Part shown: piece by piece, positions 3,553-22,051 of the stretch | How positions within the stretch are numbered: position 1 is the first letter of the stretch | How the letters are laid out: the number at the start of each line of letters is the position of its first letter | Sequence record: OZ335964.1 | Strand: one strand, 5' to 3' | Source: a phage | DNA length: 64,000 nucleotides | The notes under the pieces: generated by a model | The model's input: only the letters and a program-made list of their open reading frames with translations | Told to the model about the DNA's origin: nothing | The model's database searches: none | Made by a program: the position numbers and the translations under genes

Positions 3553-5604
3553 TTACATTTTAAATTTATCTGGCATAGCGTCTACAGATACCAGATCAGC
3601 GATAAGCTGACGTAGAGTTGCCTTATCTGCTTTCTTACGTTCGGTTTTAGCTTCGGTAATAAAGCTGGAGAAAGACAGGTCAGAAGCAGGTTTAACAACA
3701 CCTTCACGGATGAATGCATCACCGTCCGCGATCATCTCGCCAGATTCTTGTAATGCTGCCAGTTCATTTTTGTTCATAATATGTGCCTCAATGTAATAAG
3801 TTTCTTGTGAATCCGTCGATGCCGTAGCACGAGTTACCGTATCAAAGGATAACACAACACCGCGAGGAAGTAAAATCTCGCATTCTTTGTAAGCAAATGC
3901 TTTGTTACCTACTGGCAATACAGGGATGTTTTCCGCGCCAGCAATGGAGAAAGCAACATTAGCGCCACCTTCACCGCGAGATCCAGCCATAGAATCTACA
4001 CCAGCAACGGCACTAGCCACGTTTGCATTCCAGCCACCAAAAATGTTAGGTGCAAGGGAAGTGCTCACATAGTTTTTAAAGTAAAACGCTTTTTGCTTAC
4101 GTGCAGTTTCCCACATTTGAGACCGGAAGTCCATACCACGATACAGAATAGTACCAGGATCAAGTTTAACGCCATAGTTAGAGAAGGCATTATCCAGTGC
4201 ATCGCACATCTTGACCAATTCTTCTGGATCTGCGATGCCTTCAAACTCTTCCAGCTTACGGTCGGTTAGGAAGTTGTTCATATTGATGTATGCTGCATCG
4301 GCATATTCGCTCAACACAAAACCTTCCGCGCCAGGCAGATCAAGATCAATATCTGCCATCATTTCACCCATGTTGCTAGCAATTGCTTCAAACATACCGG
4401 AAGCAACATTACGTAGGGCATCGGTTTTAATCTGGGTGATATGACTACGCAGCATTTCAGCTTTTACATCTGCTGGCATAGACTGGTCTACTCGATCCAT
4501 TGCCAGTGCGGTGATCTTGTTTTCGAATACTTCCTCGCTCATGATTTCTTTTAAGCGTTTGATTGATGCTGCGATAACTTCCGCAGACAACGGATCATAT
4601 TGATCCTGAACTTTTACCAGTTCACTTACTGCGTATTTTGCATCGGCTTCGCTTTCAAAAATAGTACGCATGAAACCATAGCGAGTGATAATATCACTTG
4701 TCCAGTCATTCAGAGAACGGGCGGTTGAACGTTCTAAGGCTTGACGATCAATCAGAGTATTAAACTGTTTCTTAGGTTCGGCTTCGGTGATATCTTCTTC
4801 CGGTTTAAGATTAATTTTTTCTGGATGATTCACATAGTCGCTGTTATAGGTCGCTTGAGTTTTCAGCATTTCTTCTTTAGTCAAACGAGACTTAGCCGCT
4901 ACACGTTGTTCTGCTTCCGCGTTTCGTTCTTCTTCTGATGCAAGGCTAGCCGCATACGCTTCATCTTTAGTCAGAGATTCACCAGTAGCTTTAGATACCC
5001 AGCGATCACCTAAATCACTTTCTACTTTAGTGAACAGGGAATCATCAAGTTTAATCCCTTTAATCTTATCAATCGACATCCCGCGACGCTTGACAACAAC
5101 TAAAGCGATCTTTTTGCTGGTCATTACTTCCTGCTGGAATACTTCAAACTTAGGAGTACGACGCACCAAACGCTCTATAACGCGCTTAACCAGTTCGGTC
5201 TTACCTTTCATGCGGGATACGTTAAAACGGAACATAACAGCGTCTAATTGCGCTTTACGGGCTGTTTCCATAACCACATCAAAAGCACTTGCCATAACTG
5301 CAATCGGGTTATCGCCTAGACCATTTTTAAGCTGTACAATACGACCGCTTTTGTTCATCTCGCACAGTACAACATGTGCGGTCTTGTCACCCATACGAAT
5401 GATTTTAGGTGTTTTGTTGGTGAAGTTACAAAGACGGACAATCACATCTTTATCGCGTGTCTGTACTGCAAAAAGCTGTTTAGGGTTCTGCTTAGGCTTT
5501 AAGCACTGTACCGGAGCAATACTACCAAAGTTTTCTTCCTCTTCCGTCAACAGCCATTTCTCGAAAGATTCAATCATTAGATCGTCGATTTCTAAGTTAA
5601 ACAT
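3553..5604 (-). CDS. alt: ADP-ribosyltransferase Alt (packaged, modifies host RNA polymerase in T4)
   Basis: 683 aa (T4 Alt 682 aa); C-terminal ART motifs ILYRGM, YVSTSLA, YKECEILLPRG; synteny between 54 and 30. Confidence 0.8.
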   Translation of the reverse strand: MFNLEIDDLMIESFEKWLLTEEEENFGSIAPVQCLKPKQNPKQLFAVQTRDKDVIVRLCNFTNKTPKIIRMGDKTAHVVLCEMNKSGRIVQLKNGLGDNPIAVMASAFDVVMETARKAQLDAVMFRFNVSRMKGKTELVKRVIERLVRRTPKFEVFQQEVMTSKKIALVVVKRRGMSIDKIKGIKLDDSLFTKVESDLGDRWVSKATGESLTKDEAYAASLASEEERNAEAEQRVAAKSRLTKEEMLKTQATYNSDYVNHPEKINLKPEEDITEAEPKKQFNTLIDRQALERSTARSLNDWTSDIITRYGFMRTIFESEADAKYAVSELVKVQDQYDPLSAEVIAASIKRLKEIMSEEVFENKITALAMDRVDQSMPADVKAEMLRSHITQIKTDALRNVASGMFEAIASNMGEMMADIDLDLPGAEGFVLSEYADAAYINMNNFLTDRKLEEFEGIADPEELVKMCDALDNAFSNYGVKLDPGTILYRGMDFRSQMWETARKQKAFYFKNYVSTSLAPNIFGGWNANVASAVAGVDSMAGSRGEGGANVAFSIAGAENIPVLPVGNKAFAYKECEILLPRGVVLSFDTVTRATASTDSQETYYIEAHIMNKNELAALQESGEMIADGDAFIREGVVKPASDLSFSSFITEAKTERKKADKATLRQLIADLVSVDAMPDKFKM

Positions 5605-5958: not shown

Positions 5959-6477
5959 TTAGTTATTTTTTAATTGCTCATCTTGCAATAAAGCAATCAC
6001 ATGCTGGCGATGTTCTTCCGACTGAGGCACACCGAAAAAGTTTGTTTTGTAGAAATACTCTAATCGGTCTTCTCGTGTGCTCTCTTCCATCATGATCGCG
6101 GGTAGTCCGAGATTTCGGAAACGTCGCTTTTCTGCTGGCGTAAAATCGCTGTAATACAGCATAGAATCATCATTACCAGCAATGCTAAACTCATCCTTCA
6201 TGAAAGAGAATATTGCGTTTAAACGCTGTTTACCGTCCACGATTTCGATCTCATAGCGAGAGCCATCATCAATCTTAGCCATTGCGATAGCACCAACCGG
6301 AAAATCATTAATCAGGTTTTCGATAAACATACGTTTGTTTTCTGTGTCCCATACTAAAGGACGCTGATAATCTGGGTTCATGTTGATAAAGCCATCTTCT
6401 AGCCATGCTTCATAGACAGATATGACAAAGTTTTTAGTATTGGTATAGTAACGGCGTTTAGGCGTTAAACGGTTCAT
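5959..6477 (-). CDS. DUF262/ParB-like domain protein (GmrS N-terminal-domain-like)
   Basis: Motifs DYQRPLVW, FPVG and VDGKQRLNAI (DGQQR-like); start MNRLTPKRR chosen by RBS AGGAGA and coupling to upstream stop (track ORF extends to 6513). Confidence 0.6.
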   Translation of the reverse strand: MNRLTPKRRYYTNTKNFVISVYEAWLEDGFINMNPDYQRPLVWDTENKRMFIENLINDFPVGAIAMAKIDDGSRYEIEIVDGKQRLNAIFSFMKDEFSIAGNDDSMLYYSDFTPAEKRRFRNLGLPAIMMEESTREDRLEYFYKTNFFGVPQSEEHRQHVIALLQDEQLKNN

Positions 6478-6478
6478 G

Positions 6479-6811
6479 TTATAGTCTCCTGAATGGATCA
6501 TCACGTAAATCAATATCTTTTAAGAACTCATCCCATGAATGGCGGATATTGTTCTTAATTCTCCAGATAAGCGCAGGGATTGAACGCTCTCCCATCTGGA
6601 AGTAAGGATCATATGATCCGTATGCCCAATATGCTACTACAATTCCACAATCAGCGCAATAGTATTCTATTTCACTTGCTGGCGACCAAAGTCCATCAAT
6701 ATGATCGGTGATCTTGCTTTCGATGTTATGGCTATGGCAATCAGGGCAACGGATGCAATGACCTTGTTTATCGTAATTTGACGTTAGCGAATACTTAAAC
6801 AATCTCATCAT
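6479..6811 (-). CDS. Cys-rich zinc-ribbon protein
   Basis: 110 aa with CIRCPDC ... CADCG cysteine clusters; start overlaps upstream stop (ATGATGA). Confidence 0.5.
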   Translation of the reverse strand: MMRLFKYSLTSNYDKQGHCIRCPDCHSHNIESKITDHIDGLWSPASEIEYYCADCGIVVAYWAYGSYDPYFQMGERSIPALIWRIKNNIRHSWDEFLKDIDLRDDPFRRL

Positions 6812-7572
6812 AGATCCTTATTGGCTTCAAATACTGCCTTTGCGAATCCTCGCGGGGTAAGTGACCTGATAGTCTTTGTTCTGGTTCCTTTCCCGCCTAG
6901 CTTAGAATGCTGTTTACTGTACCCTTTCTCAATCGGCAACGGTTTCTTTTCTGGCATTATAAAGCCTTGTCCGGTCCATAAGCAAGTCTTTTTCGGGTAC
7001 ATATCACGGGCGGCAATATACTCAGGAAACGTAGGATGTATATCATCTTCCGGCAAATAACCGCCATATTCCCACGGGTGGAACATGTAATCAGGCTTAC
7101 GCCACATGCTAGAGATAACGCTTACAGGATTCTCTATCATGTAGGGAACTCCTAGCCATTCACCCAAATAAGCTGTTATTTTAGCTGCCCGTACATCATG
7201 AACTTGAATTAATGGTCCTTGCTCTCGTTTCTTTCGTTCAAAGTGTGCAGCGCCACTAACAGCTAAATTTGAACAGCTAGGAAACGCAAAGATCATATCC
7301 GGTTTGCCCCATTCAAGATCCATCGCCCTTTCCAACCAATCCAGATCTATCCATGAATTAACATAAGTTAAATTTGGGTGTTCAAATCGAGTGTTATACT
7401 TTTTATATGTTCCATGATCGGCATCATCAGCATTAAAGCAGATCACTTTATGACCTGCTTTAGCCCATTCTAGACCCATAATACCGGACCCATCGAATGT
7501 ACAAAATATAAGTTTACTTTCCGTGGTTTTCATGATAGCCATACTCTCTTTCTGCTTTGGTTCTAACTGCAA
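6808..7572 (-). CDS. SAM-dependent methyltransferase-like protein with C5-cytosine-MTase-type motifs
   Basis: 254 aa; FDGSGIMG (motif I FxGxG), FAFPSCS (motif IV Pro-Cys), MIENPVS (motif VI ENV-like) with canonical spacing; no obvious TRD or motifs VIII-X, so function uncertain. Confidence 0.45.
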   Translation of the reverse strand: MQLEPKQKESMAIMKTTESKLIFCTFDGSGIMGLEWAKAGHKVICFNADDADHGTYKKYNTRFEHPNLTYVNSWIDLDWLERAMDLEWGKPDMIFAFPSCSNLAVSGAAHFERKKREQGPLIQVHDVRAAKITAYLGEWLGVPYMIENPVSVISSMWRKPDYMFHPWEYGGYLPEDDIHPTFPEYIAARDMYPKKTCLWTGQGFIMPEKKPLPIEKGYSKQHSKLGGKGTRTKTIRSLTPRGFAKAVFEANKDL

Positions 7573-8050
7573 CGGCTTCTTCTAGTGTGTCGAAACACCC
7601 TAGATATTTTCTATCACCGCGTCGACCGCCGCCAATTCTAACTACCCATTTATTGTATTTGTTTTTATGTATTCCACTATGTCCGCTTGTATTCTTTTTA
7701 GACTTTGTTTGATTTCTCATGTTGTCGCGGTGTAGTTTAAGTTCAAAGTTAACCGCTCTATTATCTGTCTTAATGTGATTAATATGATCTACTTCATATC
7801 CTTCTGGTATAGGTCCATTGTGGATAATATAACATACTCGATGAACTTTGTAGTTAATAATTTTACCGTCAATTTTTATTGACGATTCAAGATAACGTCC
7901 ACCACTTCCTAGTGACCCGACCTCCTTTCCAGCCCATGCAGCATTCCATTGTTTTATTCTTGATGGGTGTATATCTGTTCTCTCCTTCCATGTAAGGATA
8001 CCAGTGTCAGGATCATAATTAAAGTATTTCTTCCAGTCTATATTGTTCAC
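7514..8050 (-). CDS. HNH homing endonuclease with AP2-like DNA-binding domain
   Basis: 178 aa; HNH_3-type motif VDHINHIKTDNRAVNFEL plus AP2-like SGHSGIHKNKYNKWVVRIGGGRRGDRKYLGCFDTLEEAVAVR. Confidence 0.75.
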   Translation of the reverse strand: MNNIDWKKYFNYDPDTGILTWKERTDIHPSRIKQWNAAWAGKEVGSLGSGGRYLESSIKIDGKIINYKVHRVCYIIHNGPIPEGYEVDHINHIKTDNRAVNFELKLHRDNMRNQTKSKKNTSGHSGIHKNKYNKWVVRIGGGRRGDRKYLGCFDTLEEAVAVRTKAEREYGYHENHGK

Positions 8051-12520: not shown

Positions 12521-12841
12521 TCACACAAAATGGCGTGTCAATGCTTCTTTTGCGGTTCCGCTAAGACTTTCGATCTCGCCTGGCATAACATCAACTGCCA
12601 GAACTTCTACAACATCCTCTGATCCTAACCAGTGAGTATGACCTTTGTAGAACTTGATAACCAGACTACCTTCCTCGTCCCATTTAACGCTATCGCTAGC
12701 CCACCACACATCACCGTCGATAAAGTTGATGTAAAGCACACTACGCCACATTGAATTAATTACTTTCAATACTGCGCCTTTCATCTCTTCCACGGTGTGG
12801 TCTTCCATTTTGAAGACCTCACCTACCTGAACTTTTGCCAT
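12521..12841 (-). CDS. HxHW/AVDV paralogue family member 6
   Basis: 106 aa; LYINFIDGDV, HTHW, VLAVDV. Confidence 0.55.
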   Translation of the reverse strand: MAKVQVGEVFKMEDHTVEEMKGAVLKVINSMWRSVLYINFIDGDVWWASDSVKWDEEGSLVIKFYKGHTHWLGSEDVVEVLAVDVMPGEIESLSGTAKEALTRHFV

Positions 12842-12858
12842 TTAGTCACCTCTCTTTA

Positions 12859-13038
12859 TTACATAACAATCACGCCAGCCGTTGAAAGTTGATGTTTCAA
12901 CTGAGCATTTTCTGCTACTGTCAAATCAATGATTTCTTGTGACGCTGCAATCATATAACCATTGGTGATATTGTTTTGCATCAGTTCAATGGTTTCTTCG
13001 TTGTAGCGGATTTTAGCGATGATTTCGTTGAAGTTCAT
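12859..13038 (-). CDS. small ORF (59 aa), below track threshold
   Basis: Hand-translated MNFNEIIAKIRYNEETIELMQNNITNGYMIAASQEIIDLTVAENAQLKHQLSTAGVIVM; RBS and promoter cassette upstream. Confidence 0.4.
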   Translation of the reverse strand: MNFNEIIAKIRYNEETIELMQNNITNGYMIAASQEIIDLTVAENAQLKHQLSTAGVIVM

Positions 13039-13072
13039 GTTTGATTCTCCTAGTTCGTTTCGGTATGTGTGT

Positions 13073-13101
13073 AGTATAGGGGATCACCGATCCCCTGTCA
13101 A
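13073..13101 (-). promoter_or_regulatory. sigma70-type early promoter cassette
   Basis: TTGACA - 17 nt palindromic spacer GGGGATCGGTGATCCCC - TATACT. Confidence 0.55.
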
Positions 13102-13114
13102 CAACTTTTTTGAA

Positions 13115-13591
13115 TTATTTTTCTTGATGCTCGCGCTCGTACTTTTCGAAATAAAATTCTACTGGCTGGTCGTGGATTGACAGTAAGCCAAAGCGTTTAG
13201 CCGCTCGCAACCCCATATTGCGCTGAATGTACTTCTGGAAGTTCTCGCGTATACACTTACGCCAGTATTCTAAGCCCATACAGCTTTTATAAAGATTGCA
13301 TTGCACACACGCCGGATTCATGTTATCAAGTATATCATGCTCCGGTTTATGCATTCCTACAACCTTATACTTCCACGATCCATCATCATTACGGGCAATT
13401 CGTCCATTTTCATCATAGACTACTTTTGAGCGTCGTAATACTGGTTTGATGTGGTCTGCGTGCCAGCGATCCCCTAGTTCCTCGCCACAATAGGCACAAT
13501 GTCCACCATATTTCATTTTCAGGATCTGGCGTTGCTCTTTCTTTGACAATTTTTTAGGTTTAGGGGCTTTCGCCCCTTCATTATCACACAT
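13115..13591 (-). CDS. HNH-motif zinc-finger endonuclease-like protein
   Basis: 158 aa; CAYCG ... HADHIKP ... N ... CVQCN: canonical HNH Cys/His pattern; stop coupled to ligase start. Confidence 0.55.
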   Translation of the reverse strand: MCDNEGAKAPKPKKLSKKEQRQILKMKYGGHCAYCGEELGDRWHADHIKPVLRRSKVVYDENGRIARNDDGSWKYKVVGMHKPEHDILDNMNPACVQCNLYKSCMGLEYWRKCIRENFQKYIQRNMGLRAAKRFGLLSIHDQPVEFYFEKYEREHQEK

Positions 13592-15086
13592 CGAATACCT
13601 CTTTTACTGTATTTGCAGTGGTCTTGTCGTAGCGAATACGTTTGATGATCGGGAGAAATAAAGAGAACTCCGGTTCATCTTCTTTACGTGATTTGCTGCG
13701 GATATACCCGTTGCATGTCATCTCAATGACTTTTCCAATCAGGTTATGACGGTCAGCCCATAACATTTCTCGGTCAAGTTCATTTCGACGATCGAACGGA
13801 ATTACACGTTCGATACCATCATCACCTTTTTCGGTTGTAGTGTCGGTTAATCCCGATCCGGTGTTAGTCATCATTCGTCCACACGCACTACGGACAGTAA
13901 AACCGCCTACCTTATTGGGGTCTTTACTATGCGGATATACATCAACAATTTCCGCGTCGAAGTCAATCACTTCTTTAAATTTAACCTGATCTTTACTACG
14001 GCGATCTTCAAATACACCATGCAGATTTTTAAGGATAATACCTTCTAAGCCCATGTTTACATAGCGATGATATACTTCGCGAGCTTCATCGATATTGTTA
14101 ACTACAGTATTTTCGATTATCTGAACACGAGGATCGTTAAGTTCTTCAACAATCTGTTTTAGTTCTTCGAATCGATCTTTATATTGCTTCGTTGCTTTCT
14201 CGTTTCCGTAATACACATCACGGTCGATAACATCCCAGACAGTGTAAACAATACATTGGGCTTCTTCTTTTGGAATAGTTCCTTTCAGTGATTTGTTGAG
14301 GATACCATTTCCGGTCTGACGATCTGCAACAACGGATTCTTTTACTGCTTCCGCTACTGGCGTTAATGGTATTTCCTCTTCTTCAAATATCCATGACAGA
14401 GTACCATCATAAACGCTCTCAACGAAGTTCTGCGCTGGTGTTTGCGAAAGGGTAGGCATATATACCAATTCGCCATCTAGAACAATTCCACGGCCTCGTA
14501 GACGCTCTAAAACAGAAAACAAATCATCCAGCCCCTGGTAGGTATTACCTGAACGGGTATATATTGCTAATGTTTCCCCGTCAATATCAGCCATACCACG
14601 AGCGCCATCACTTTTAAGTTGTGCATATGCCGGATATTTGATATTAGCAATAGCCTTATCAGAATATGACGATGCAAGGTGGCATGGTTGCTGGGGGATC
14701 AGTTTCTTCCATACCTTGTTTGAAGTGGTAGCGGAACAACCGCATTCCAGATCACGATTCAGGACCATCATTGCAACTTTAGCATCATCTTCTGACAAGC
14801 AAGTCAGAGTATCGGTAACTAGCTGTAATGCTGCATTACCAGTTACTTGACGCGTGGCAAGTTTATTTTTAAAGACCTGCAATGCACCGGATAAAGACAA
14901 TACAGACGAATAGCGCGATGGTTTATCGTATTTCTTTACGCCAAACGTAACCTGTTTGCAATATGCCAGATAAAAGCATTCTTTCAGCGTTTCATTGCTT
15001 GCAGATTCTTTCAGGATCTTTTCTTTCAGCGATGTTTTGTCGGTCGCTGCAAGCTGGTTAATGATATTAAGAATTGACATTTTCAC
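13584..15086 (-). CDS. 30: ATP-dependent DNA ligase
   Basis: 500 aa (T4 gp30 487 aa); adenylation motif I KSDGARG; synteny alt...30...31. Confidence 0.9.
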   Translation of the reverse strand: MKMSILNIINQLAATDKTSLKEKILKESASNETLKECFYLAYCKQVTFGVKKYDKPSRYSSVLSLSGALQVFKNKLATRQVTGNAALQLVTDTLTCLSEDDAKVAMMVLNRDLECGCSATTSNKVWKKLIPQQPCHLASSYSDKAIANIKYPAYAQLKSDGARGMADIDGETLAIYTRSGNTYQGLDDLFSVLERLRGRGIVLDGELVYMPTLSQTPAQNFVESVYDGTLSWIFEEEEIPLTPVAEAVKESVVADRQTGNGILNKSLKGTIPKEEAQCIVYTVWDVIDRDVYYGNEKATKQYKDRFEELKQIVEELNDPRVQIIENTVVNNIDEAREVYHRYVNMGLEGIILKNLHGVFEDRRSKDQVKFKEVIDFDAEIVDVYPHSKDPNKVGGFTVRSACGRMMTNTGSGLTDTTTEKGDDGIERVIPFDRRNELDREMLWADRHNLIGKVIEMTCNGYIRSKSRKEDEPEFSLFLPIIKRIRYDKTTANTVKEVFDV

Positions 15087-15546
15087 CTCGTTTTGTTAAA
15101 CGTTCACGAATATCATTGAGGATACTACAAAATTCCGATTCGGTCAATATGGTCTTTAACGGATCAGTTCCACCTATGCTATGACGCAATTTCTTATTTC
15201 CGGTAGCGAGTAATGCTTTACAAAATTCTGGGTTATTCCGTGCCATCGTAACAAATGCCAGATGCACCAGTCTGTAATAATGCTCACTCATTCTATGAAT
15301 CGGGCGACCCTGAAAATATAGCATGTGATTCTCTATCTTTTCAGCCCTTCCGGTTCTTTTTGCTTTGCCACCGTGCATCAAAAAGATTTCTCTTTGTCTC
15401 TGAGGGTTCTTAAATCTTAGCCCCTGTAAAAATCCTTCTGTGCTGTTAATATCGCAACCAAATAGACGGAATGGTCTTTTATTGAAATTACTCAATTCAC
15501 CCGATGGATAAGGTCCACCCGCATAGATATCAATTTCAGAAGTCAT
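15067..15546 (-). CDS. NADAR/YbiA-like (DUF1768) domain protein
   Basis: 159 aa; GELSNFNKRPFRLFGCDINSTEGFLQGLRF parallels E. coli YbiA GDFSNFAAWPIKVDGKTWPTSEHYFQAQKF; C-terminal ALLATG also shared. Confidence 0.6.
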   Translation of the reverse strand: MTSEIDIYAGGPYPSGELSNFNKRPFRLFGCDINSTEGFLQGLRFKNPQRQREIFLMHGGKAKRTGRAEKIENHMLYFQGRPIHRMSEHYYRLVHLAFVTMARNNPEFCKALLATGNKKLRHSIGGTDPLKTILTESEFCSILNDIRERLTKRGENVNS

Positions 15547-15700
15547 TGAAACTAATCTCGCTAATCATAGAGAACGGATCATAATCGTCATGAGGAATAT
15601 CGATAGTAATCGAATGAGGATTTACCCATACACCAAACTGGTCTTCTTCGGTGAATACTTCGGTATGGATTTCGTGGATGTTTACATTCATAGTTTTCAT
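15536..15700 (-). CDS. small ORF (54 aa), below track threshold
   Basis: Hand-translated MKTMNVNIHEIHTEVFTEEDQFGVWVNPHSITIDIPHDDYDPFSMISEISFNDF; stop overlaps start of NADAR gene; RBS AAGGAA upstream. Confidence 0.35.
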   Translation of the reverse strand: MKTMNVNIHEIHTEVFTEEDQFGVWVNPHSITIDIPHDDYDPFSMISEISFNDF

Positions 15701-15743
15701 AATAAAATTCCTTAATAATCAATAACTTACAAAATCATATAGC

Positions 15744-15772
15744 CAAAATATAGGCGGGATTATTTCCCGCCG
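15744..15772 (-). terminator. rho-independent terminator after gene 31
   Basis: GGCGGGA-TTATTT-CCCGCC hairpin with minus-strand T-run. Confidence 0.6.
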
Positions 15773-15782
15773 TTTAAAATCA

Positions 15783-16106
15783 TTAACCGTAAACTACCAC
15801 AATATTCTGTTTGTGCGTTACAGTCCATTTCAGGTCGATCTCTTCTTCCTTCTTAACGCCGTTAATAACGTCTGGATGAGGAACTTTATTCATCTTGCCA
15901 TGTGGCAGTAGAACAATTTTACCCAGCAATTCTTTATCTACAGTTTCACCAATATCAATAATCTTACCTACCAGCGGAATCTCGCCCATAGTGCGCTTTT
16001 GCTCAATAATGATCCCCATAGAGCTTTTTACTTCGGTCCCTGCGCTTTCTGCTTTAGCTTCGATAATTACATAATCACCAAGTGCTTTAGGAGTTTTAAC
16101 GGTCAT
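15783..16106 (-). CDS. 31: GroES-like co-chaperonin gp31
   Basis: 107 aa; resembles T4 gp31 (GEYVI..., NVPHP mobile-loop region); synteny 30-31-cd. Confidence 0.7.
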   Translation of the reverse strand: MTVKTPKALGDYVIIEAKAESAGTEVKSSMGIIIEQKRTMGEIPLVGKIIDIGETVDKELLGKIVLLPHGKMNKVPHPDVINGVKKEEEIDLKWTVTHKQNIVVVYG

Positions 16107-16147
16107 AATTTTATTACCTCTTCAAATCAATACAGTTTAATGATGAA

Positions 16148-16468
16148 TTATTTATAAATTTCGACGATCTGCGCTGGAGTCAGCCCGTCTACATTAATCA
16201 GACTATCAAGCCCAAAACTACGGAAACCTTCAACTGCAATTTCATATACTGGCAAAGATGTTTCTGATTCTTTACGCGGTTTTTCAACATTCGGAACTAA
16301 CCACTTTTCGTATGTTTCAAACGGCATCAGTGCCGGATCTCTCGTAGCGATCATCTCGCGGACAGTACCATCTTTCTTAGTAAACTGCAAAGAGTGAGTA
16401 CCGACCGAAAACATTTTCTTTAGTGCTTCACGAAGTGCGATATTATCAATTTGTTCGGTCATTATCAA
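16148..16468 (-). CDS. hypothetical protein
   Basis: 106 aa ORF between 31 and cd; stop overlaps cd start. Confidence 0.5.
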   Translation of the reverse strand: MIMTEQIDNIALREALKKMFSVGTHSLQFTKKDGTVREMIATRDPALMPFETYEKWLVPNVEKPRKESETSLPVYEIAVEGFRSFGLDSLINVDGLTPAQIVEIYK

Positions 16469-16961
16469 TACCCTTCAAATCAGTCAATAATGCTTTTGGA
16501 ATACGCGTGATCGTAATATCTGCATTATTAAGAATATCAGCCCAATCACGCCCACCATTTCGATCATATGTGTCGCAATAGTATAGATGTTTAATTCCAC
16601 TGTTTGCAATTGCTTTAGCGCAATCTGGACACGGTGAAGCAGTACACCACATACTAGCACCTTCAATCGATACACCGCTACGGGCAGCAAACAAAATAGC
16701 ATTTAATTCAGCATGGATCTCGTTTTTCTGTGACCATGCACTATGTTCTGGTCGTTTTTCTGGGATCATTTTGCCGTCATCATCCAGCCAACCGCTTTTA
16801 TGTGCATGACAGCTACAATTTACTTGCCCTGCTGGAGTGCCGTTAAATCCAGTAGAAATGATTCGCCCGTCTTTTTCAATTAGTGCGCCTACCTTCCACG
16901 AAACGCATTTAGAGTTCTTTGCGATTAGATAGGCGATCTGCATGTAAGTTTGTGACAACAT
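16446..16961 (-). CDS. cd: dCMP deaminase
   Basis: 171 aa; zinc-binding deaminase motifs HAELNAI and CTASPCPDCAKAI. Confidence 0.85.
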   Translation of the reverse strand: MLSQTYMQIAYLIAKNSKCVSWKVGALIEKDGRIISTGFNGTPAGQVNCSCHAHKSGWLDDDGKMIPEKRPEHSAWSQKNEIHAELNAILFAARSGVSIEGASMWCTASPCPDCAKAIANSGIKHLYYCDTYDRNGGRDWADILNNADITITRIPKALLTDLKGIDNDRTN

Positions 16962-16982
16962 AATATAATCCTCACATATTAA

Positions 16983-17186
16983 TTAACCGTATACGCGAAA
17001 GTATTCTACTGTTCCGTCGCTATACTGTTTTACATTGAATGTATTCACGCCATGATCATTGCTCATAATGACATATACACTGCGACGCTCATCACCAAAC
17101 GGGTTAACTGGTGCGGGTTCAATTTCAACATTAAAACCACGTTTAGCAAGTGCTTCGCCTAATTGCTTGAGTTTATCGGTAAACAT
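16983..17186 (-). CDS. hypothetical small protein
   Basis: 67 aa ORF between cd and pseT. Confidence 0.45.
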   Translation of the reverse strand: MFTDKLKQLGEALAKRGFNVEIEPAPVNPFGDERRSVYVIMSNDHGVNTFNVKQYSDGTVEYFRVYG

Positions 17187-18085
17187 TAAAAGTCTCCGTA
17201 GTTAACCTGAAAACATTCTACACCAATTGAGCGGTACATGTCAACCACTTGATCACGGTCGTCTACTGCCAAAACAACATGATAACGCGGTGCAATTTCA
17301 GAGAAGAAAATCTCTTTCTTCACTTCATGGTCAGGACGACGATCATTAGTTTCGCGCTGGAAGTGATCACTAGGTTCAATACCTTGTTCACGCAACCATT
17401 GCAGCGTATCTTCCTCGCAAACATCCTCACGTCCTGAGCACGTAATGATACGATAGCCATTATCACGATACAGTTTAAGCATTTCGATCACTTGCGGACG
17501 CGGTTTATCTTCTTTGACCTTTGTCCAGTCAAACGGATGACGACCGCCCTTATCCGCTAATGTTCCATCAATATCAAAGATCACTGCCTTCGGCAGCATT
17601 GTATTCGGTTTGTATACTTCTTGACCCATATATTCCTGCATCAGATAAAATTGGTTACGCAAATGAGAAAGTGGAATTGCTTTCTCGCCGCGATAGAAAT
17701 TACGTTTCTTTAGTGTCTCAAATGATTCATTGAACACTTGTTCAGTATACACCGCGTTAAATTCTTTTGCAAGTTCTTTGTAGAATACACGATGTTTTTC
17801 TTTCAGGTTGGTATCGGAGATAATGATACTCAATCCGCGTGATAGAGTCTCACGAGCAATCATTCTCTGAATAGACTCTACCAGCTTTTCTTTTTCCTTA
17901 GTATACTTGTATTTCAAAAGTGAGTCAACACCAAACAACATAAGACGAAGATCATCGCGATTCACATTACGATAATTACTAAACCGTTTACATGTTTCCA
18001 TAGCCCATGTAGTTTTACCAGACCCAGAACAACCAACGGTTAAAATCACTTCACATTTCGGCATTATTTCTCCTTCGGTTTGCAC
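17186..18085 (-). CDS. pseT: polynucleotide 5'-kinase/3'-phosphatase
   Basis: 299 aa (T4 PNK 301 aa); Walker A GCSGSGKTTWA and HAD phosphatase motif VIFDIDGTLAD. Confidence 0.9.
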   Translation of the reverse strand: MQTEGEIMPKCEVILTVGCSGSGKTTWAMETCKRFSNYRNVNRDDLRLMLFGVDSLLKYKYTKEKEKLVESIQRMIARETLSRGLSIIISDTNLKEKHRVFYKELAKEFNAVYTEQVFNESFETLKKRNFYRGEKAIPLSHLRNQFYLMQEYMGQEVYKPNTMLPKAVIFDIDGTLADKGGRHPFDWTKVKEDKPRPQVIEMLKLYRDNGYRIITCSGREDVCEEDTLQWLREQGIEPSDHFQRETNDRRPDHEVKKEIFFSEIAPRYHVVLAVDDRDQVVDMYRSIGVECFQVNYGDF

Positions 18086-21574: not shown

Positions 21575-22051
21575 TTAATCATGACCGTGATTTGCAATAT
21601 CCGCTCGCGTCTTATCTTTGTGATTTCCTACGTCAAAGACACGATAACCATTTTCACGCAAAACTTTAATCACTTCTGGGTTATCTTCGAATACCCCCAC
21701 TACTCCATCTTTATCAAAGGATTTAATTACCTCTAATTTGATGTGATAGTCTTTACGGGAATCGGTACGTCCTCTCATAAAGATTTTATCAAAACATACA
21801 CCGTTAGAAATTAACCAATCAATTGTTTCCATGTAAGCATGTGAACTTCGTCCGGTGAGGATGTAAATCAAATGCCCGTTGTCGGAAAGAGCATTGATAA
21901 CACGGATTACATCGTAAATGGGGGAATCTCCCCCACATGCCTTGTTATATTCGATCCATGACTCGACTTTATCAAGATTTTCGGTTGGCATCTTTGCTAG
22001 TCGATGTGTTGGATCTGTGATCGTAAAATCTAAATCGACAAAATATATCAT
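21575..22051 (-). CDS. HAD-superfamily phosphatase (possible nucleotidase)
   Basis: 158 aa; motif I FVDLDFTIT (DxDxT), ILTGR, C-terminal VFEDNPE; coupled to nrdB stop (ATGA). Confidence 0.55.
   Translation of the reverse strand: MIYFVDLDFTITDPTHRLAKMPTENLDKVESWIEYNKACGGDSPIYDVIRVINALSDNGHLIYILTGRSSHAYMETIDWLISNGVCFDKIFMRGRTDSRKDYHIKLEVIKSFDKDGVVGVFEDNPEVIKVLRENGYRVFDVGNHKDKTRADIANHGHD

Follow-up and report, generated by a model that had tools for sequence, protein, structure and literature searches.

What does the 159-amino-acid protein encoded beside the DNA ligase gene of this phage do, and does it work together with the ligase? The gene lies in the 64,000-nucleotide stretch of phage DNA taken from record OZ335964.1 (the whole stretch is called the window below), and the original prediction, made from the sequence alone, had described its product as a NADAR/YbiA-like protein coupled to DNA ligase and as a candidate counter-defence or DNA-repair enzyme. 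The open reading frame (ORF) was found on the minus strand with exactly the predicted bounds. Its product is probably the Krischvirus AdfN, a phage-borne orphan antitoxin-like NADAR hydrolase which erases DarT1-type guanine ADP-ribosylation from phage DNA. Orthology to T4 gene 30.3, the fold, two of the three key residues (Glu and His) and the C-terminal helix were observed in the present analysis, and the same activity and role as in T4 would be expected of this Arg44-bearing protein. The part of the prediction that named a NADAR/YbiA-like guanine-ADP-ribose hydrolase active against DarT-type toxins was supported by the PF08010 match, the T4 orthology, the published function of T4 AdfN and the fold. 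Family assignment, biochemical activity and counter-defence role have each been published before, and the prediction was a correct call on a known gene.

Family, fold and published function

The protein was found to match PF08010 (Phage_30_3) over positions 2-138 of the 138-position profile at E=2.2e-38 (131.7 bits; the cut-off is 36), and to share 39% identity over 151 amino acids with T4 gp30.3 (BLASTP, E=9e-31). The gene order 31 ... 30.3 ... 30 ... alt was found to be common to T4 and Krischvirus. The PHROGs family of the protein was phrog_652, which is labelled 'unknown function'. PF08010 is a separate model for a divergent phage branch of the NADARs, and some of its members were found to match the NADAR model PF08719, one through a precomputed match and another with 27.3 bits, still under the cut-off.

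A profile built from 55 diverse gp30.3 proteins was used for the hhalign comparison and for the search of the PDB. The hhalign comparison with Escherichia coli YbiA gave 94.8% probability (E=5.6e-8, 138 columns), and the PDB search returned YbiA at E=0.0013 followed by a Phytophthora NADAR at E=0.2; in a pairwise BLASTP the single protein and YbiA were only marginally similar (23% identity over 107 amino acids, E=0.009). The AlphaFold2 model of the protein (mean predicted local distance difference test score 93.7, predicted template modelling score 0.88) was found to match NADAR structures only, with YbiA, whose fold is a helical core with small flanking sheets, as the top match. The motifs named in the original prediction were all found to be present, namely LSNF (residues 18-21), F26, G30, STE37GFLQ41GLR44F and KALLAT (residues 110-115). 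The likeness to YbiA was thus significant at the profile level, but the motif quoted for it, TSEHYFQ..KF, belongs to YbiA itself; the corresponding stretch was found to read STEGFLQGLRF, with Arg in the place of the Lys of YbiA and most relatives. On the basis of PF08010, the profile-profile comparison and the fold, membership of the NADAR superfamily is secure despite a PF08719 score below the threshold.

The function of the family has been described in a series of papers. Earlier bioinformatic studies, cited in PMC11543638, had already assigned the phage gp30.3 family to the NADAR superfamily, and Schuller et al. (2023, Mol Cell; PMC11543638) found that NADARs hydrolyse the guanine-N2 ADP-ribose made by DarT1. 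A 2024 study gave phage NADARs the name 'gp30.3 proteins' and found that T4 gp30.3 removed guanosine-ADP-ribose in vitro, not thymidine-ADP-ribose, and did not rescue uninfected cells from DarT1 (PMC11125620). Johannesman et al. (Nat Commun 2025; PMC11825919) mapped the DarTG1 resistance of T-even phages to gene 30.3, which was renamed adfN (anti-DarT factor NADAR). A T4 derivative without adfN was found to become DarTG1-sensitive, ectopic adfN-T4 restored the plaquing of DarTG1-sensitive RB69, and AdfN did not bind DarT1. T4 AdfN was weakened by E36A and by K43A. In the RB69 allele a frameshift 15 residues before the end removes the C-terminal helix, and the reduced activity goes with DarTG1 sensitivity (PMC11825919). 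In a transposon screen (HIDEN-SEQ; preprint 10.1101/2025.11.20.689424), T4 could do without 30.3/adfN on K-12 but not on DarTG1 hosts, and a 2026 paper found that the T4 enzyme did not remove cytidine-ADP-ribose and that NADARs hydrolyse guanine-ADP-ribose on RNA as well (PMC12945103). The specificity for guanine over thymidine and cytidine and the need on DarTG1 hosts are thus results for the T4 protein only (PMC11825919, PMC11125620, PMC12945103, 10.1101/2025.11.20.689424).

By analogy with T4, a DarT1-type toxin of the host would ADP-ribosylate the N2 of guanine in replicating phage DNA, followed by binding of the ADP-ribose by the AdfN orthologue and cleavage of the bond between ribose and guanine. 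Arg44 would lie at the diphosphate, and Glu37 and His122 would flank the distal ribose. The products would be free ADP-ribose and intact guanine, which would let phage replication continue, and the protein would act as a phage-carried orphan type IV antitoxin without binding the toxin. No DarT1 gene was found beside 30.3, whose neighbours were ORF 31.-1 and the DNA ligase gene; 30.3 is an orphan gene, in line with the published description of AdfN.

In a megablast search, positions 13000-17000 of the window were found to match about 60 phage genomes with 95-99% identity, all of them RB49-like T4-type coliphages of the genus Krischvirus, with Shigella phage JK32 as the best match (98.8% identity). 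The window is therefore Krischvirus DNA (RB49/Phi1/JK32-like T4-type coliphage), and full-length copies of 30.3 were found in the roughly 60 genomes. In comparison with Phi1, the gene was found to contain 6 synonymous codon changes and 1 non-synonymous change, and in comparison with JK32, 7 and 4, respectively; this chiefly synonymous change fits a maintained function. The ORF was annotated as gene 30.3, 'conserved hypothetical protein', in the Phi1 and RB49 records, and the JK32 record carries the note 'Bacteriophage protein GP30.3'; for RB49 this naming as a gp30.3 homologue is long-standing. The identical 159-amino-acid sequence was already public without a name, and the named near-identical copies among the matches listed were labelled 'hypothetical' or 'uncharacterized'.

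Beyond the genus, tblastn homologues were found in 1510 phage records, most of them from T4-like phages that infect Escherichia, Klebsiella, Shigella, Aeromonas, Acinetobacter and Vibrio, and an exhaustive HMMER search, run on 1.84 billion cluster representatives, gave 971 relatives at E<=0.001. The longer relatives were found by Pfam scans to contain only tandem gp30.3 domains, one fusion to a calcineurin-like phosphoesterase and one fusion to a BspA-type leucine-rich repeat domain; no fusion to a ligase or repair domain was found among them. Three database entries touching the family were also observed. A 90%-identity cluster of a public collection files 54-amino-acid gp31.-1 proteins together with the 159-amino-acid gp30.3 protein, which is probably a clustering artefact caused by a fused gene call over the 11-nucleotide overlap of the two genes. 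The gp30.3-homologous regions of Klebsiella phage Roth21 (PQ657794.1, 65839-66285) and Klebsiella phage phi1_146010 (PP889464.1, 106781-107185) carry features labelled 'anti-CBASS protein acb1' and 'virion RNA polymerase', respectively; these labels are likely mis-annotations or the names of overlapping neighbour features.

Key residues and the Lys-to-Arg variant

The residues were surveyed in 166 aligned domains, made up of the best 150 representatives of the exhaustive HMMER search together with earlier matches. The Glu which contacts the distal ribose in NADARs (PMC11543638, PMC11825919) was found to be conserved as Glu37, a position occupied by Glu in 160 of the 166 domains, followed by the presence of Gln41 (Gln in 154/166). 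The last strand was found to contain His122, within L-R-H-S-I, which was aligned to T4 H123 and, by hhalign, to the Glu of L-V-E-H-T in YbiA; His was found at this position in 159/166 domains. The residue at this site is Glu in YbiA, Asp in DarT-associated (DarG1-type) NADARs and His in phage NADARs (PMC11543638, PMC11125620), so the protein carries the state of the gp30.3 clade. The C-terminal helix was found to be intact and the protein to be full length relative to T4. At position 44 an Arg was found; its distance of seven residues from the Glu is the one seen in every characterised NADAR. This position contained Lys in 150/166 domains and Arg in 10/166. The expected catalytic residues were thus found in part, with the Glu in its place and the phosphate-binding Lys replaced by Arg.

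Arg at the equivalent position was also found in Acinetobacter phage Acj61. The Arg-bearing sequences fell into at least three groups whose nearest relatives were Lys-bearing, with the Glu and the His retained; two further Arg-bearing cases were degenerate second domains in which the Glu was also lost. Since Arg is scattered over groups with Lys-bearing neighbours, it is a recurrent, tolerated minority state. The Lys-to-Arg change at position 44 is conservative, and it lowers the certainty on potency, not on homology.

Several observations weigh against assigning the AdfN role to this protein. The identity to the experimentally tested T4 protein was only 39%, and a search of the literature library for RB49 or Krischvirus together with DarTG found no test of an RB49-group phage or of its gp30.3 against DarTG1. 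AdfN-T4 has its full effect only during T-even infection (PMC11825919), and Krischvirus stands outside the subfamily Tevenvirinae. In the hidden Markov model (HMM) search against the NADAR family, which had been proposed as a check, the protein did not reach the curated threshold of PF08719 (15.5 bits, E=0.021; the cut-off is 35.1). Under the refutation terms set in the original prediction, the call would have failed on this score, and one catalytic residue is changed. PADLOC gave no match for the protein, and NCBIfam gave only a sub-threshold trace of 'NADAR family anti-phage protein' (13.6 bits against a cut-off of 240). The conserved Lys seven residues past the Glu is absent, Arg44 standing there, and the in vivo potency of the Arg44 allele is uncertain because the K95R variant of the E. 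coli C7 NADAR, which kept its activity in vitro, failed to rescue cells from DarT1 (PMC11543638).

These last points lead to the main rival explanation, to which a small probability is given, namely that the protein is a NADAR by descent whose Arg44 allele is weakened against DarT1 in vivo or retargeted to another substrate or DarT variant. It draws on the rarity of Arg at a position otherwise held by Lys, on the loss of toxin rescue in C7 K95R and on the only partial rescue by T4 K43A (PMC11825919). The recurrence of Arg in at least three separate lineages with intact Glu and His, and its presence in Acj61 as well, argue against it, as does the full-length gene with mostly synonymous change across Krischvirus genomes. 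Arg can, as established chemistry, still bind phosphate. The AdfN assignment is preferred over a weakened or retargeted allele.

Neighbouring genes, ligase adjacency and ADP-ribosyltransferases

The coordinates of the gene, its key residues and the features weighed with it are collected in Table 1.

Table 1. Gene 30.3/adfN, its key residues and associated features in the window
Feature	Position	Strand	Evidence or remark
Gene 30.3/adfN orthologue, single-domain NADAR-fold protein, 159 amino acids	15067..15546, stop codon included	(-)	ATG-to-TAA ORF
Glu37 codon GAA	15436..15438	(-)	= T4 AdfN E36, PnNADAR E43, E. coli C7 NADAR E88
Arg44 codon AGA	15415..15417	(-)	Site of the phosphate-binding Lys: T4 K43, PnNADAR K50, E. 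coli C7 K95
His122 codon CAT, last strand	15181..15183	(-)	Hallmark of the phage (gp30.3) NADAR clade
C-terminal alpha-helix, residues 136-157	15076..15141	(-)	DSSP of the model; alignment with T4 reaches residue 150
Gene 30, ATP-dependent DNA ligase, 498 amino acids	13584..15080	(-)	PF01068 E=4.7e-22, phrog_114 E=1.7e-142
ORF 31.-1, 54 amino acids, Krischvirus-specific, function unknown	15536..15700	(-)	phrog_15277 E=1.2e-41; named gp31.-1 in RB49
Terminator-like GC-rich hairpin GGCGGGAAATAATCCCGCC with T-rich tail, between gene 31 and ORF 31.-1	15753..15771	(-)	Consensus scan
Alt-like ADP-ribosyltransferase, 683 amino acids	3553..5604	(-)	ADP-ribosyltransferase domain
Stand-alone ADP-ribosyltransferase, 274 amino acids	2650..3474	(-)	phrog_15144, PF03496 E=9e-16

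Next in probability, and already unlikely, is that the protein is a self-regulating eraser, which reverses the ADP-ribosylation of nucleic acids or proteins by the phage's own ADP-ribosyltransferases (ARTs), the Alt-like protein and its 274-amino-acid paralogue. The original prediction had counted three ARTs in the genome; only two were found in the window, and phmmer searches with both against all window ORFs of at least 60 amino acids found no third. The 274-amino-acid ART was found directly downstream of the Alt-like gene and is a paralogue of the Alt catalytic domain (phmmer E ~2e-15). The presence of the two ART-domain genes in the same window, 9.5-13 kb away from 30.3, and the activity of NADARs on guanine-ADP-ribose in RNA (PMC12945103) are consistent with such an eraser. 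Against it, transposon insertions in T4 30.3/adfN persisted on plain K-12 and disappeared only in the presence of DarTG1 (10.1101/2025.11.20.689424), and T4 Alt-type enzymes are annotated as protein (RNA polymerase) modifiers. The reported NADAR activity is on DNA and RNA bases, with protein substrates unreported in PMC11543638, PMC11125620 and PMC12945103, and a conserved linkage of 30.3 with alt was not shown beyond T4-like synteny. The window ARTs, both Alt-like and at least 9.5 kb from 30.3, are members of the RNA-polymerase-modifying Alt family, and no evidence points to their products as substrates of AdfN.

More improbable still is a functional DNA-repair module with the adjacent ligase, in which removal of the lesion would be followed by ligation. 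The predicted siting of 30.3 next to the ligase gene was borne out; with the ligase start placed, as in the Phi1 and JK32 records, at the ATG at 15080, the last 14 nucleotides of 30.3 were found to overlap it, and a Shine-Dalgarno-like GAGGTG for the ligase was found inside 30.3. From the overlap and this site, the two genes are probably co-transcribed and perhaps translationally coupled. The wider claim of a protein 'coupled to DNA ligase' was not supported by the comparison of genomes, in which the adjacency was not conserved over the family. In T4, genes 30.2 and 30.1 lie between 30.3 and the ligase gene, and 30.3 abuts gene 30 in the window because these two genes are absent. Acinetobacter phage Acj61 was found to contain two ORFs between 30.3 and the ligase gene, the homologue of Aeromonas phage 44RR2.8t lies within the transfer RNA (tRNA) cluster beside vs.6, that of Ralstonia phage RSP15 in the tRNA region, and that of Vibrio phage D525 upstream of, and next to, SbcCD-like genes. 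Therefore the ligase adjacency is read as inherited local synteny tightened by deletion, not as conserved coupling, and the lack of conserved linkage largely refutes the module. The term 'DNA-repair enzyme' likewise found no support, since hydrolysis between ribose and N2 would, from the chemistry in PMC11543638, give an intact base without a nick and leave an intact strand with nothing to ligate.

The last of these unlikely alternatives, a YbiA-type metabolite N-glycosidase for damage control of riboflavin intermediates instead of a DNA de-ADP-ribosylase, is hardly credible. In its favour, YbiA, annotated as 'N-glycosidase YbiA' in E. coli, is the top structural match, but the protein has only 23% identity with it, stands in the gp30.3 clade with His and not Glu in the last strand, and has a T4 counterpart with a DarTG1-specific phenotype (PMC11825919, 10.1101/2025.11.20.689424).

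The gene was found in a tightly packed run of leftward genes, with its ATG lying within the end of ORF 31.-1 (11-nucleotide overlap). The hairpin upstream of ORF 31.-1 may be the upstream limit of the gene string 31.-1 / 30.3 / 30 / HNH gene; in a promoter and terminator scan of 12800-17200, the counts of sites were not above those of shuffled sequence. An HNH endonuclease ORF (13115..13591, minus strand) was found to share 8 nucleotides with the 3′ end of the ligase gene, and an HNH_3 endonuclease ORF (7514..8050, minus strand) to overlap the start of a DNA methyltransferase-like gene (6808..7572); both are likely to be mobile endonucleases of the homing type. The 4001-base query (13000..17000) was found to align in two pieces, over about 4350-5120 record bases, in many Krischvirus genomes, which therefore have roughly 0.35-1.1 kb of inserted sequence somewhere in this region that is absent from the window.

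A PseT polynucleotide kinase/phosphatase gene was found at 17186..18085 (minus strand). The Phi1 record contains a second short 'polynucleotide kinase' ORF (ORF229) beside nrdB, and at the corresponding place the window contains a 158-amino-acid ORF (21575..22051, minus strand). The 184-amino-acid ORF at 5959..6513 (minus strand) was found to contain only an N-terminal DUF262/GmrSD_N domain (PF03235, E=6e-20). Its match to a PHROG profile of 417 positions is confined to positions 9-183, which suggests a relative of the GmrSD-type modification-dependent nucleases that is truncated or N-domain-only, and no C-terminal half was seen in the adjoining ORFs.

Relation to known systems and meaning of the variant

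The nearest characterised system is T4 AdfN, with which the protein was found to share PF08010, the 39% identity over the whole length, the size, the single-domain build and the genome region between genes 31 and 30, followed by the catalytic Glu, the clade-specific His and the C-terminal helix. It differs from T4 AdfN in containing Arg44 instead of Lys43, in the missing 30.1 and 30.2 with the ligase gene abutted directly, and in its carrier, a Krischvirus outside Tevenvirinae. Also related are the NADAR antitoxins associated with DarT1 (DarG1; the BC4488 family, G. lovleyi 8bat and the E. coli C7 NADAR; PMC11543638). They contain Asp in the last strand where His was found here, and Lys (K95) where Arg was found; DarG1 contains N-terminal extensions, whereas the present protein consists of the core domain alone, in agreement with the description of the T4 phage NADAR in PMC12945103. 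In DarTG1 systems the NADAR gene lies beside the DarT1 toxin gene, whereas here it is an orphan in a phage. E. coli YbiA (PDB 2b3w) and its family differ in the 23% identity and in the family-defining Glu, which is His here; YbiA is encoded in a LexA-controlled operon of the host and gave no DarT1 protection in vivo (PMC11125620). AdfN-Bas32, AdfN-Bas60 and AdfM are, like the present protein, phage-borne orphan antitoxin-like hydrolases that erase DarT marks. However, AdfN-Bas32 and AdfN-Bas60 were independently acquired, come from other branches of the NADARs and do not need phage infection to work, and AdfM (T4 tk.4, anti-DarTG2) has a macrodomain fold and acts on thymidine-ADP-ribose.

The practical value of the assignment lies in annotation, as the protein is still 'hypothetical' in public records and escapes a search with the NADAR HMM alone. 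The one question left is what the natural Lys-to-Arg change means for function. A further idea, speculative and doubtful, is that Arg44 marks a functionally distinct AdfN subtype, shared by Krischvirus with some phages of Acinetobacter and a few more lineages. If true, this subtype might suit another DarT variant or another ADP-ribosylated nucleic-acid substrate; alternatively, it might function in non-Tevenvirinae backgrounds, where T4 AdfN works poorly. The Arg44 of this phage provides a modest test, made by nature, of the K95R result, namely whether Arg at this position supports counter-defence in vivo.

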